DNA from: Arcobacteraceae bacterium
GTDB taxonomy: Bacteria > Campylobacterota > Campylobacteria > Campylobacterales > Arcobacteraceae
Assembly: GCA_963662945.1 (NCBI GenBank)
Contig: OY759974.1
Span: 1,920,001-1,984,000 of the forward strand
DNA: 64,000 nucleotides
Direction of reading: 5' to 3'
Below are positions 58,574-63,300 of this stretch, in pieces. The position numbers and the translations under genes are program-made. The notes under the pieces are model-generated. The model ran no database searches. It was given only the letters and a program-made list of their open reading frames with translations, and had not been told where the DNA came from. Every line of letters begins with the position of its first letter. Position 1 is the first letter of the stretch.

Positions 58574-58601
58574 AGCATAGAAGAAAAACTTCTTCTATGC
58601 T
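58574..58601 (-). terminator. Hairpin overlapping the stop of the 77-aa ORF, probable terminator
   Basis: AGCATAGAAGAA-AAAC-TTCTTCTATGCT, 12-bp arms; U-tract short. Confidence 0.5.
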
Positions 58602-58828
58602 GAAATTTTAGATTTTGTACTATAGTGTCTTTCTACTTCTTTAGCAGCACTTTTGAACGCTTTTTTTGTAGACTTACCTACACCTCTAAAAATTCTATCT
58701 TCATTGATAAATTCAACGATATCAAGATTTTTCTTTACTTTTGTGTCAACAACTCTAAAAATGTGAAACTCTTTTTTGAGTTTTTTAATCTTTGGGAACT
58801 CTTGACTTTTTAGTACTTTTGTTTCCAT
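58595..58828 (-). CDS. Small basic hypothetical protein (77 aa), possible dsRBD-like fold
   Basis: ATG 58828 after AAGGA; FRGVGKSTKKAFKSAA motif. Confidence 0.65.
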   Translation of the reverse strand: METKVLKSQEFPKIKKLKKEFHIFRVVDTKVKKNLDIVEFINEDRIFRGVGKSTKKAFKSAAKEVERHYSTKSKISA

Positions 58829-58919
58829 TTTTATATCCTTTAGTAATAATATATTACTAATATACATAATTTAAGCTTAAAGTTTGATTAGTTATAAGAA
58901 AAACGAATATGTAATTATA

Positions 58920-60596
58920 CTACAAAAAAACTTCATAAAGTATGTTTTTTATATCTTCAATCATATTTTTAGATAAAGTTGATTTGTTTGAAAAAATATA
59001 AAATGGAACAGTATTTAAAATAGATTTTTTTAATCGTTTTCTCAATGTTGAAACTTGGTCTATTTTGACAAGTTCATCACCATCAAAAAGGCAAAACTCT
59101 TTATCAATTCCAATATTTAATGAAACAATTCTATAGGTATAAAAAGTATTGTTGTCTATATCTTCATATTTCTTACATAAAGCTTCTAACTTATCTTGAA
59201 GTTTTTTATAATTGTTTTTACTTACATATCCAAAGCTCTCTCGAAACTTGTATCTTTGAATATCTGGAAACTCCAATAGATTATATAAGTCATTGAGATT
59301 TCTCCAAGCACTGTTGTAAAATTTTTTTCCAAATAATATCTCTTCAAATGAACAAAGATATTTTTTATCTTTGAAGTTATAAGTTTCTTTATATTTTATA
59401 GTGAAATACTCTTTTTTAAAAAGTGTGATAATCCAATTTTCATCTAACTGACTTATGATGTCTAGTTTTTTTTCATTGTTTTCTTCATCTAAAAACTTCC
59501 ATAACATTGAGATAGAGTTGATTTGTTCATCATCTATGTTTGTGGATTTGAGATATTTTTTAGCAAGATAGAGTATGACATTTTCTAAAAGTGAGTCAAT
59601 AACAGATATTTTATGGTTATAGATGATTTTTTTATAGAGATTAAATCGCATCTCGATCATATGTTCTATATCTATAAGTTCACTATCAAAAAAAGATATT
59701 GTAAATTGTTTTTTATTTTGGACGAGGATTGCTCTTTTTGCTATTCGTATAAAATCTATACTTCCACCAATATAACCACTTGCAAGCATATCACGATTGA
59801 TATAATCAAGTCTATCAGCATCTACAGTTCCATCAATAAATTTATGCAATACCCCATAATCAAAGATTTCATCATCTTTTTCATTTAGAATATTTTTTAC
59901 TATTAAGTAGATAAGTTTTGTGTAGTTTTTATCTTTTGTATTTGAGGTAAATTGCTGCATCTCATGTTCAAAAAGGAGTTTTACAAGCTTTTCTCCAATA
60001 GCTTCATGTAAGACTAATGAAGAGTTTTTTGTTATCTTTTCATAGAAAGTGATAAACTCCTTCTCTTTTTCATTTTGTGTTGGATTTGCTTTTAAAATAT
60101 CATACAATTTTTCCATCGCATATTCCACTTGGTGCGAAAATGGAAAATGTCCCACATCATGAAGTAAGCCAACTATTCTTAAAGCTTGTAAAGCTACTAG
60201 ATAAATATCTTTGAAATTGTTCGATTTAAGAGGTATCATAAACTCATAGAGTGTTTTATCACTAAGATTATCAATATCTTTGATGGTCAAATCAAGTTTA
60301 TTTTCTTTGATAATATTTTTGATAGATTTTTTGAGTTTTTTTAAAAAATCATATTTAACATTTTCATTTGCATTTAATATGGCATTTTTAAACATATGCC
60401 CACTCATATGCATAGTTCCTAAACTGTGGATATATCTTTTTGTATTGATAGAAGGATAAGCAAAATAGGCTAGGGCATTTTGTGTCACAAAGAAAAGGCG
60501 ATTGACAATTTTAGTTTGCAGTAGTAAACTTTCAAATTCACTACACTCTATATGTTTATATATGGTGTCATTTATAAGTTTTGTTCTATTTAACAT
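58920..60596 (-). CDS. HD-superfamily phosphohydrolase, dNTP triphosphohydrolase (SAMHD1/dGTPase)-like
   Basis: RYIHSLG, LLHDVGHFPFSH, LHE, VDADRLDYINRD, RFNLYKKIIY. Confidence 0.85.
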   Translation of the reverse strand: MLNRTKLINDTIYKHIECSEFESLLLQTKIVNRLFFVTQNALAYFAYPSINTKRYIHSLGTMHMSGHMFKNAILNANENVKYDFLKKLKKSIKNIIKENKLDLTIKDIDNLSDKTLYEFMIPLKSNNFKDIYLVALQALRIVGLLHDVGHFPFSHQVEYAMEKLYDILKANPTQNEKEKEFITFYEKITKNSSLVLHEAIGEKLVKLLFEHEMQQFTSNTKDKNYTKLIYLIVKNILNEKDDEIFDYGVLHKFIDGTVDADRLDYINRDMLASGYIGGSIDFIRIAKRAILVQNKKQFTISFFDSELIDIEHMIEMRFNLYKKIIYNHKISVIDSLLENVILYLAKKYLKSTNIDDEQINSISMLWKFLDEENNEKKLDIISQLDENWIITLFKKEYFTIKYKETYNFKDKKYLCSFEEILFGKKFYNSAWRNLNDLYNLLEFPDIQRYKFRESFGYVSKNNYKKLQDKLEALCKKYEDIDNNTFYTYRIVSLNIGIDKEFCLFDGDELVKIDQVSTLRKRLKKSILNTVPFYIFSNKSTLSKNMIEDIKNILYEVFL

Positions 60597-60601
60597 AAGA
60601 T

Positions 60602-60634
60602 ATTATAGCTAGTTTTTATTACACTTTGGTTGCA
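60602..60634 (-). promoter_or_regulatory. Candidate Pho box plus -10 for the HD gene (leaderless)
   Basis: Minus strand TGCAAC-caaag-TGTAAT, 10 bp, TATAAT, 5 bp, ATG. Confidence 0.62.
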
Positions 60635-60648
60635 TATAAAATGTAATT

Positions 60649-60949
60649 TTATTTTTCATCGTGAGATATTTTATTTGCTATATCTTTGTAGTTTAAAGCA
60701 AATTCTCTCATTTTTGTAAATGTTCTCATAATTTGTTTTGTAACTTGTGTTGCTATAGAATTATTTATAACTGTTGCTAACATATAAACACCTTGTTCAG
60801 TAAAAACAAATGGTAATTTTCTTTGACCACCACAACTTGAAGTGCCAATTTGGCATTTCAAGTTTTCAAACTCCTCTTTTGTGAGCTGAAACATAAAATC
60901 GGATTCATCAAATTTATCAAAATGTCTTTTTACTTGTCTGTTTAAGTAA
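60649..60949 (-). pseudogene. 5'-truncated ORF6N-domain gene
   Basis: LNRQVKR..F..DFMFQLTKEEFENLKCQIGTSS.GG.RKLPFVFTEQGVYML; the usual upstream IRG.QVMLD.DLA.LY part is absent; the track ATG lies inside the attC stem. Confidence 0.75.
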
Positions 60950-61018
60950 GTATAACGTTTAAAATGAGCCAATAAATGTCCCGCAGGGTAATTTATTGGC
61001 TCCTCTGATTTGTTATAT
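60950..61018 (-). mobile_element. Candidate integron attC site (69 bp)
   Basis: Minus strand ATATAAC-AAATC-AGAGGAGC-CAATAAAT...ATTTATTG-GCTCATT-TTAAAC-GTTATAC; GNAT stop TAA lies in R''. Confidence 0.75.
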
Positions 61019-61453
61019 TTTCTTTAATTTCATGTGTATTAAAGGAAATGGGTTACCTTGTCCATCAAGTACAGAGCGACCTGATTGAACAAATCCCATT
61101 CGCTGATAAAACCCAATTGCATCGGGATTTTGTTCGTTTACGTCAACTTTTGATGCGCCAAGATTCTCAATGGCGTATTTAGTTAACTTTCGACCGATTT
61201 TTTGACCGATATAATCTGGATCTACAAATAACATTTCAATTTTCGAATCAGCAACACCAATAAATGCTAATATCTTATCGTTACTATCTTTAAAACAATG
61301 CAAATCAACAGCATCAAAATACTGTTCCAAAATCAGAAGTTTTAACTCTGCAATTTTTCCCTCTGGTAAAAATTTATGTGTTGCTCTAACAGAAGCTTCC
61401 CAGACATTGATTAATTCCTGATAATTTTCTTTTGTAACTTTTTGAATATTCAT
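61013..61453 (-). CDS. GNAT acetyltransferase, YjaB-like
   Basis: VWEASVRATH.FL, IEMLFVDP..IGQKIG, VDVNEQN..AIGFY..MGF, DGQGNPFP. Confidence 0.92.
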   Translation of the reverse strand: MNIQKVTKENYQELINVWEASVRATHKFLPEGKIAELKLLILEQYFDAVDLHCFKDSNDKILAFIGVADSKIEMLFVDPDYIGQKIGRKLTKYAIENLGASKVDVNEQNPDAIGFYQRMGFVQSGRSVLDGQGNPFPLIHMKLKKI

Positions 61454-61457
61454 ACGA

Positions 61458-61748
61458 TTATTTTCCGCTTTTGACTATAGGCAGTAAATTCGATTGACCA
61501 TATTTTTCAAATATATCCCGAATCTGTTTATTCGTAACTTCATAACAATCACATACTCCATCTTTACGAAGTTTTAACGATGCAATATGTCTTAGTGTCG
61601 ATATTTGTATAGGTGCAAGTTCTTTTGCAGCTTCAAAAAGTAGTTCATGCATAGCATCAATCTTTTCTTGTATATTAGGCAAATTTTTACGTTTTTCAAT
61701 TTCTTTTTCCAACAAATTTAAAAGCTCTTGTAATTCATCAGCTAACAT
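61458..61748 (-). CDS. Hypothetical helical protein (96 aa)
   Basis: RBS AGGAG, 4 nt upstream of GNAT; no recognised motif. Confidence 0.65.
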   Translation of the reverse strand: MLADELQELLNLLEKEIEKRKNLPNIQEKIDAMHELLFEAAKELAPIQISTLRHIASLKLRKDGVCDCYEVTNKQIRDIFEKYGQSNLLPIVKSGK

Positions 61749-61773
61749 ATCATTTCTCCTAGTAAGGTTTTAA

Positions 61774-61824
61774 ATATAACTCTTTATTGAACATACATTA
61801 TATATAAAACACCCTAAAAATCAA
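61774..61824 (-). promoter_or_regulatory. attI-like entry site and upstream promoter
   Basis: Minus strand TTGATT-16 bp-TATAAT, then GTTCAAT-aaaga-GTTATAT. Confidence 0.5.
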
Positions 61825-61863
61825 TAAATAACATACACAAAATATGTCGTATATTAAAACAGC

Positions 61864-61891
61864 GAAAAATACCTTAGATAAGGTATTTTTC
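61864..61891. terminator. Inverted repeat downstream of phoH-like gene, probable terminator
   Basis: GAAAAATACCTTA-GA-TAAGGTATTTTTC, perfect 13-bp arms. Confidence 0.65.
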
Positions 61892-61926
61892 CATATATTA
61901 CTATAAAAAATAATACTATTTAATAA

Positions 61927-63300
61927 CTATTTTTTATTCTCAAAAATTCTCTCTGTAAACTCTGCAAATTTTCCTCTTACAGCTTTATCTAACTCTATAG
62001 CAAACATACTAAGTTCTGGATGTTGATGACTTGTATGTTTAAGAAGTGTTGTAAGACCATTGTTGTATTTATTTAGGTACAAGTTATCTATTTGTCTATT
62101 TGACCCGATAACCACACCCATACAACTTTCATCAAGTCTACTTAAAATAAGTTGCGTTGTATTTTCACTACTATTTTGCCATTCATCCATTATTACTATT
62201 GCATCACTTAGAGTTCTACCCCTTGCTTCCCCAGGCCAAAGCATCTCTATATTGTATTTGTTTATTAGCTCTTCTATTTTTGATTTTATTGATTCTTGAT
62301 TTTCTTTGTTTTCATTCTTTTTGAGTCGTTTTTTTGCTATGAACTCTAAAGTATCGTATAAAGCCATATTGTAGATTCTAAATTTCTCATCATTTCCAGC
62401 TAAGTATCCTACATCTGCACCTTTATCAAGTGACTCTATAGAGTTTCTTACATATACTATCTTTTCATAAGCTCCAATATCTATAAGTCTCATAGCACTT
62501 GCAATACTCATCAGTGTTTTTCCACTTCCAGCTTTTGCATCTATAACCATAAGGTTGTACATATTTGAAAGCATAGCTTTGAGGAAAAACTTTTGTTTGA
62601 GATTTGCAGGTCTTATTACAAGTGAGTTAAACAGTGCATCTTCTATGATATCAATTTTTTCATTGACAATAATTCCATACGTTGAGTTTCCATCTTTTGA
62701 CAAAAACTTATAACAAAAGTTTTGGATATGATAATCTGGGTCTATATCTTTGATATTTGATAAGTTTAAAGAGTTAAATCGTGATGAGTCCAGCTCAATC
62801 TCTTTTACAAATTCAAATGTAGGAATATCAGCTTTGTCTTCATGTAAAGTTTCTGTTTTTATATTTGCAAAAAGTGCAAATGTTCGTGCATAAATATCAA
62901 TTGAGAGGAAAACTACTTTTTCCCCTGTATAGTATTCTTTTGCTACTTTTGCAACCTCTATGATTCTTTTATCATTGCTTTCAGCGATATTGTGTGCTAA
63001 CACTTCACTTTCATATTTATCTTTTGAAATAATATGTATCTCAATATTGTCATCATAAAGTTTTACTACTTTGAAATCTTTTTTATAATCAATTTCTTTG
63101 ATTTTTGTTTGTGCTAAAAATCTTGCGAATTGTCTTGATTGATAACCAAGTTCATTAAAAAGTTTTTTCTTATCTTCTAACTCTATTAAAACCGTTTCTG
63201 GTATTACAACAATGTTTGTGCCATTATCTGCAATATTATAAATATTTTGGATATTTTGTAAAATAACATTTGTATCAACTACGTAGATTTTTTTTCCCAT
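61927..63300 (-). CDS. PhoH2-type protein (PIN domain plus PhoH ATPase)
   Basis: YVVDTNVIL, V..ELED, NDKRII PIN motifs; AKAGSGKT, RGRTL, DEWQN. Confidence 0.9.
   Translation of the reverse strand: MGKKIYVVDTNVILQNIQNIYNIADNGTNIVVIPETVLIELEDKKKLFNELGYQSRQFARFLAQTKIKEIDYKKDFKVVKLYDDNIEIHIISKDKYESEVLAHNIAESNDKRIIEVAKVAKEYYTGEKVVFLSIDIYARTFALFANIKTETLHEDKADIPTFEFVKEIELDSSRFNSLNLSNIKDIDPDYHIQNFCYKFLSKDGNSTYGIIVNEKIDIIEDALFNSLVIRPANLKQKFFLKAMLSNMYNLMVIDAKAGSGKTLMSIASAMRLIDIGAYEKIVYVRNSIESLDKGADVGYLAGNDEKFRIYNMALYDTLEFIAKKRLKKNENKENQESIKSKIEELINKYNIEMLWPGEARGRTLSDAIVIMDEWQNSSENTTQLILSRLDESCMGVVIGSNRQIDNLYLNKYNNGLTTLLKHTSHQHPELSMFAIELDKAVRGKFAEFTERIFENKK

Follow-up and report, generated by a model that had tools for sequence, protein, structure and literature searches.

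A fused integron cassette on a predicted attI platform without an adjacent integrase gene in an Arcobacteraceae genome

In the parts of Cury et al. 2016 considered here (PMC4889954), the origin and liveliness of integron cassette clusters that lack an integrase were left open; the loss of intI from one of several integrons and the action of an integrase in trans were named as possibilities, and the search for attI and Pc was limited to exact matches with those of classes 1–3. Service in trans was also raised in the accessible text of Loot et al. (bioRxiv 10.1101/2022.09.11.507474), which deals with isolated cassettes that have no other att site nearby, and the idea was repeated for excision in sections of later work in which Campylobacterota are counted among integron hosts (PMC9668308, PMC8618304). 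In Xanthomonas, according to the main-text passages used (PMC12444791), intI was found at one locus (ilvD), extra CALINs were present at a few conserved loci, and the same intI lesion usually went with identical arrays. A fused cassette of class 1 integrons, blaGES-1/aacA4, was described as cotranscribed and excised as one unit (PMC4670013, in part).

We analyzed a locus within a 64,000-nt stretch of the genome of an Arcobacteraceae bacterium (the window; the genome is designated G000, and window position 61780 corresponds to C1:1981780). At this locus, intI does not adjoin attI, as it does in complete integrons; one attC and the genes of two cassettes are present, whereas a strict CALIN has at least two attC sites and no nearby intI; and attI lies 760 bp upstream of attC, whereas SALIN or attG cassettes have no other att site nearby. 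The locus resembles CALINs and SALINs in having attC-bounded cargo without a neighboring intI. Unlike these clusters, which are defined by attC only, it appears to keep attI and a candidate Pc, and the site could both receive and donate cassettes. It shares with the Xanthomonas integrons a chromosomal platform from which intI was apparently lost by deletion (PMC12444791, in part). In contrast to Xanthomonas, intI has 13 different neighbors at 14 loci here (some of which may reflect rearrangement), and arrays differ behind shared lesions. Like sedentary chromosomal integrons, as described in the portions of PMC8618304 considered, this system has an attI of the L-5-R type, a conserved attC family, a TIGR02249 integrase, and cargo mostly of unknown function; unlike them, it comprises 6–7 short arrays in each genome and no more than one intact intI. 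As in blaGES-1/aacA4 (PMC4670013, in part), the first attC is lost and both coding regions are kept, whereas here the attC appears to have been lost entirely through an 8-bp microhomology, the two parents are known as free cassettes, and the platform is a chromosomal orphan, that is, one without intI. No description of several attI-bearing orphan platforms per genome was found in the literature on retained attI or on Arcobacter and Sulfurimonas integrons, which consisted mostly of open-access text without supplements.

The locus is bordered on the left by phoH2 (61927–63300; PIN and PhoH domains, Pfam PF13638 and PF02562) and on the right by an HD-domain gene (58920–60596; PF01966, E = 3.4e-4). 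Both host genes and all of the integron parts described between them lie on the minus strand, and the inserted DNA starts immediately after the phoH2 stop codon. The original prediction had placed an integrase-less integron cassette between these two genes, and a comparison with empty sites bore on it directly: phoH2 adjoins or overlaps HD (−4 to 23 bp) at seven loci in relatives (G012, G015, G011, G020, G007, G004, and L065), so the interval is not stably syntenic. The same platform with other cargo was present between phoH2 and HD in G013, G006, and G009. HD was missing at this site in G010 and G023, and in G002 the site was interrupted by a contig end. A 90-aa ORF 3′ of HD (58595–58867) had only a weak dsrm match (E = 0.042); it directly follows phoH2 in the two genomes that lack HD at this place, G010 and G023.

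The site that bounds the cargo on the distal side spans 69 bp (60950–61018), a usual length for attC. It consists of an R″ box ATATAAC (61018–61012), which contains the stop codon of a GNAT gene, a 5-nt spacer, a perfect 12-bp inner stem, a 6-nt spacer, and an R′ box GTTATAC (60956–60950), with the crossover after the G at 60956. The boxes, spacers, and stem had all been proposed earlier, and each was found at its proposed position. The reading of the element as attC was likewise confirmed: folded as single-stranded DNA it reached −14.0 and −14.1 kcal/mol (z = −5.74 and −6.02), with none of 200 shuffles folding equally well on either strand, and 20 distinct related copies were found behind unrelated genes, at or just past the stop codon (copies were kept only with GTT; three rows without it, representing two distinct sites, were dropped). 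In the bottom-strand alignment of these copies, 91.2% of 476 cells were paired, compared with 26–47% in slid controls; the shuffle test of this pairing is inflated by the kinship of the copies. Three pairs had two-sided changes, G-T and A-T alternated at two stem positions, and the four core pairs were 98.8% paired over the 20 copies. The bottom strand is the better folding one in attC sites (PMC5027507, in the text considered), and it gave the better fold in 19 of the 20 copies, the sole exception being the window site (bottom strand, −14.0 vs. −14.1 kcal/mol).

The deviant R boxes and imperfectly paired L boxes already recognized in the original prediction amounted to one departure from RYYYAAC/GTTRRRY in each R box, with the outer three bases variable among copies, and to L″/L′ pairing at 5 of 7 positions once one bulged base is removed; one L position was unpaired in 19 of the 20 copies. 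The bulge is a single base in L″, a C on the bottom strand, as opposed to the G16 of the sites treated in the relevant part of PMC5027507. Other attC sites of G000 and the related copies also bulge a C, whereas the usual G is bulged in a GC-rich 64-bp site of G013. A strict genome-wide scan of G000 (AAC…GTT with an inner stem of at least 9 bp) returned only the window attC and one sister copy, each on both strands. Near copies are present at two places in G000 other than the window. An attC model built from these copies found six sites in G000, one of them in the intI-linked array, and gave 90.5 bits to the window site, which is itself among the sources of the model. The cassette unit was matched in 13 of 28 genus genomes. 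A known RNA family at this locus was also considered and was rejected, with no Rfam match at E ≤ 1 over 60400–62100. Fold, pairing, and family membership together indicate that the element at 60950–61018 is a real attC.

At the opposite end, the heptamer GTTATAT (61780–61774), complementary to R″, had been taken as the start of the unit, which measures 824 bp from there to the G of R′. The heptamer alone is weak evidence (0.12 expected per 831 bp), but it marks a true boundary, to judge from two observations: free copies of the first cassette start at the same G/TT, and the heptamer is the R box of attI. The impression that the cargo is richer in CG dinucleotides than its flanks held on counting, with 27.7 per kb in the unit vs. 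6.6 in HD, 8.0 in phoH2, and 7.1 in the genome; the 23 CGs of the unit were reached by 24 of 3005 genome tiles of 831 bp.

Just upstream of the unit, at 61774–61824, we identified what the alignments indicate is an attI site with a promoter-like platform. The attI is a simple site (61774–61792) with an L box GTTCAAT, a 5-nt spacer, and an R box G/TTATAT, and its crossover lies between 61780 and 61779; six G000 sites share one attI core, one of them upstream of a divergent intI. The approximately 150 bp upstream of GTTATAT (61781–61926, by BLAST) are repeated at four other places in G000 with 79–82% BLAST identity. The spacer of the divergent, intact intI in G000 is of a different type, and only its last 28 bp are common to the orphan platforms. 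Spacers of complete integrons in relatives matched the window platform with 83% (G043) and 80% (G008) aligned identity, and the alignment of the orphan platform with the intI-attI spacers of these two genomes extends over about 330 bp. By this homology, the platform is the attI-proximal part of the intI-attI spacer of complete integrons, in eroded form. Two further places in G000 were left uncounted, one at C1:409.5 kb with no GTT and a match at C1:2262319 with a different context.

Conservation over 21 orphan copies, which were chosen by a pattern ending in GTT and are subject to that ascertainment bias, decreased from 1.0 at GTT to 0.59 across the next 8 bases. Different cassettes start exactly after G/TT in different attI copies, and each orphan platform of G000 carries its own cargo. 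The candidate Pc (TTGATT-16-TATAAT, 61797–61824) matches the consensus at 10 of 12 positions, which is at chance level (10 sites found vs. 10.0 expected); its −10 region was 98% conserved in the 21 orphan copies. This promoter would drive both cargo genes, and the likely role of the site is the expression of whichever cassette sits in front. The left, eroded part of the platform contains a 12-bp hairpin (61864–61891) that scored as terminator-like; it is perfect in the window and imperfect in most other copies, and could block read-through from phoH2. Platform copies 79–88% identical were also present in genomes of other families (G037 C12, G273 C1, and G259 C14), which suggests integron transfer between families.

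The original prediction had assumed an integrase elsewhere in the genome or now lost. No intI lies beside the cassette, and the search for intI and similar repeats that had been suggested recovered both, in G000 and in relatives. In G000, the only TIGR02249 match over the cut-off is an ORF without stops at C1:545688–546632 (403 bits; cut-off, 265), 1.4 Mb from the window site. Its product has what we take to be the motifs R, K, HxxR, H, and Y and the IntI insertion region. Alongside this one intact intI, G000 has five intact integrase-less platforms (window site included) and a decayed one. The decayed, attI-like site is the seventh (C1:878356–878515) and is accompanied by the first 20 codons of intI (85% identical), which point away from it. 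Each of the 28 genus genomes searched had at most one intact intI. Intact intI was absent from G006, G011, G015, and G020, all of which have platforms, and G009 had only a frameshifted intI. The latter (C30:122505–123497) is full length in three frameshifted pieces and looks like an earlier stage of the same decay.

The reading that we consider likely is that the window holds a one-unit array on a platform whose integrase was lost in place, with cassettes that were added in trans and then fused. The main competitor, in our view an unlikely one, is that the cassettes entered while intI was still beside them and that the platform was later kept only as a promoter for domesticated genes. Such a frozen relic would agree with the lost internal attC, the truncated distal gene, and the eroded spacer in the window, with the decayed attI sites known between phoH2 and HD in G043, at dnaK in G013, and at C1:878.5 kb in G000, with the several relatives that have no intact intI, and with the same outcome reported for Xanthomonas. 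The comparison of arrays gave a different picture. When nine genome pairs were compared at orphan loci, the first cassette differed in eight and was the same in one, the M23-lysA pair of G000 and G013; at least this orphan looks frozen. Five pairs share an intI-less left junction (compared by eye), and four of these five differ from the base after GTT(A), which points to cassette loading after integrase loss, in trans. In G011 and G020 the old, distal end is shared (3.4 kb, 97.7% identity) and the new, proximal 3 kb are wholly different, a polarity that would be expected for insertion at attI. The first cassette of the window is 97.6–98.4% identical across genomes in which phoH2 is 77–91% and the platform 86–91% identical, and is thus far more alike between species than either the platform or the host gene. 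The L box was 93% conserved in the orphan copies, a value subject to the bias of their selection by a pattern ending in GTT, and it too argues against a relic. Together these comparisons suggest that the docks in relatives keep acquiring new genes. The genomes are of different species, and differing arrays could also have come by homologous recombination from a donor. Neither an excised circle nor an empty attI joint was present in the assembled contigs of four runs, material that is uninformative on this point.

How the platform came to be without intI bears on a second alternative, which we regard as improbable: the promoter, attI, and cassettes may have been duplicated or transferred into the site without intI rather than left there by deletion. 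The orphans are closer to each other and to the G043 and G008 spacers than to the intI spacer of G000, and no complete integron was found between phoH2 and HD among 14 + 7 orthologous loci in relatives. The platform was present in 24 of 36 family genomes and in 58 of 301 order genomes, with 84–88% matches outside the family (the order-wide search scored two candidates per genome, and no copy numbers can be read from it). Neither terminal repeats nor a common end was seen. The left ends vary between loci and between strains at one locus, and the orphan platforms are cut back from the intI side by varying amounts. Several left ends lie at or inside intI, with 5′ remnants of 20 codons in G000 and about 50 in G006; the uvrA orphan of G006 holds both ends of the gene, its last and first codons being joined, and the thrC orphan of G009 keeps the start. 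Three loci, moreover, differ between genomes, with a complete integron in some and an orphan in others: thrC (G000 vs. G009), aspS (G013 vs. G000 and G006), and ubiD (G043 vs. G009), names that we assigned presumptively from translations. At the phoH2 locus itself, platform versions of approximately 320 bp in G013 and G006 reach a decayed intI start (a short, AT-rich remnant) right after the phoH2 stop, whereas the window platform keeps only three bases that are possibly the intI stop. We infer deletion in place in the window from these intermediates in relatives, the erosion in the window being further advanced. The TTA after the phoH2 stop is better read as the intI stop itself than as a crossover. 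Self-mobilization of the whole integron via a G/TT at the intI stop was rejected as a general route; of the 12 complete integrons examined, only 1 has a G before the intI stop.

The cargo, which had been predicted to be one cassette, consists of two, fused at 61446–61453. The first (61446–61779) has no attC of its own and carries a 96-aa ORF (61458–61748) for which Pfam, NCBIfam, PHROGs, and PADLOC gave nothing better than E = 0.013 and the Atlas no usable match. G011, G020 (two loci), and G013 have this cassette in free form, ending in a 69-bp attC of its own. The second cassette contains the gene of a YjaB-like GNAT acetyltransferase of 146 aa (61013–61453; PF13673, PF13508, and PF00583), which scored 129.4 bits with PRK10514, just below the cut-off of 134, and matched YjaB (PDB 2kcw) at E = 9.6e-22; like YjaB, it probably acetylates a protein or a small molecule. 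The octamer ATGAATAT (61446–61453) occurs both in the tail of cassette 1 and around the start codon of cassette 2, and an 87-bp deletion between its two copies, comprising the attC of cassette 1 and the leader of cassette 2, reproduces the window sequence. In runs X3 and X4, which come from two samples of a single study (X3 may be the source sample), contigs cross the junction without differences, and an assembly artifact was rejected on these grounds. The cargo has two cassette genes, has lost the first attC, and ends in a single attC, as expected of a fused cassette, and a microhomology deletion is strongly supported by the match between scar and parents. Both parent cassettes have the R″ box ATATAAC, and for this reason the earlier argument from complementarity between the two ends of the unit survives the finding of two cassettes.

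Capture of the GNAT gene by the 96-aa cassette, at a point between the stop region and the attC of the latter, would also leave GNAT, from start to stop, flanked by the two halves of the tail of the free cassette and followed by an attC of the same family as that of the 96-aa cassette. We consider this very improbable: GNAT also occurs on its own as a free cassette in L129 (97% nucleotide identity, 20-nt leader) and in run X5, with the same R″ overlap and attC family as in the window; an attC-like site follows the stop in 9 of 29 tested GNAT relatives vs. 1 of 29 controls; and a single deletion over the octamer accounts for everything. At one position the window has a G in place of the T of the free 96-aa cassette in G011, which gives a GGA 10 nt before the GNAT start (61454–61468); speculatively, this may be a weak replacement ribosome-binding site after leader loss. 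In G013 (L109, about 1890–1920 bases past attI), a fusion affects the opposite end of the 96-aa cassette: the R″ of the preceding cassette runs into its leader, and the attC is gone. Loss of attC is apparently recurrent in the arrays of these genomes.

Beyond attC lies a 5′- and 3′-truncated ORF6N-domain gene (60649–60949; PF10543, E = 9.6e-20, model positions 27–86), which appears to be distal array debris. It matches a full 178-aa gene of G013 at 93%, and the match begins 1 base past R′ and ends short of the end of that gene. A split of the gene by clean attC insertion was rejected, as the match begins after the whole R′ box and not at G/TT; truncation by deletion is likelier. Non-cassette modules, ORF6N among them, are shared by the distal ends of several arrays (L118, L127, L126, L109, L110, L059, and G000 C1:2434–2436 kb). 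The other modules are presumably an opposite-strand HTH gene, a 77–83-aa ORF, and a pair of TetR-like and MATE-like genes. Behind decayed or orphan platforms in L031 (G043), L067 (G020), and L062 there are small gene pairs that we take to be toxin-antitoxin-like; these platforms include the phoH2-HD site.

Of the solitary cassette of the Campylobacterota type that the original prediction described, the part that stood is an integron cassette of a Campylobacterota organism; it is not solitary, since it occupies the first position of a platform with attI and a promoter candidate, and that platform, the fusion point at 61446–61453, and the truncated ORF6N gene had been overlooked. Insertion of a lone cassette at a secondary chromosomal site (attG) is the least probable alternative. 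With one attC and no intI within the window, the locus would by definition count as a SALIN as Loot et al. use the term (bioRxiv 10.1101/2022.09.11.507474, in part), but the attI homology contradicts this reading: on its left the cargo joins a conserved attI and roughly 150 bp of integron spacer, which the empty-site relatives lack.

The reading of in-place integrase loss with later loading in trans would imply the following history. In an ancestor of G000, G013, G006, G009, and G043, a complete integron would have established itself between phoH2 and HD. Its intI would then have been deleted from about the stop to the start codon and the spacer eroded, with Pc and attI spared. An IntI from another locus would have recombined the folded bottom strand of attC with the double-stranded attI, and it is rather likely that this enzyme inserted the GNAT cassette first and the 96-aa cassette later, ahead of it. 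The deletion between the ATGAATAT copies would have removed the middle attC; both genes would since have been transcribed from Pc as a small operon and could leave only jointly, as an 824-bp circle.

The cassette by itself is ordinary, and the point of interest is the architecture around it. The locus and its relatives allow complete and orphan states of the same sites to be compared in pairs, with intI deletion scars; in the relatives, arrays behind a shared lesion have changed at their attI end; and the fused cassette comes with both of its parents and the exact scar. With one integrase and six natural attI variants in G000, service in trans is directly testable. We give about even chances to a more general model, a distributed integron of this Arcobacteraceae lineage in which complete integrons continually colonize new intergenic sites and shed intI while retaining promoter and attI, and the remaining or a passing intI loads all docks in trans. 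If this is true, such a genome would have five to seven expressed first-position slots in place of a single long array that is largely silent, and many CALINs and SALINs would be live receiving sites with an overlooked attI.
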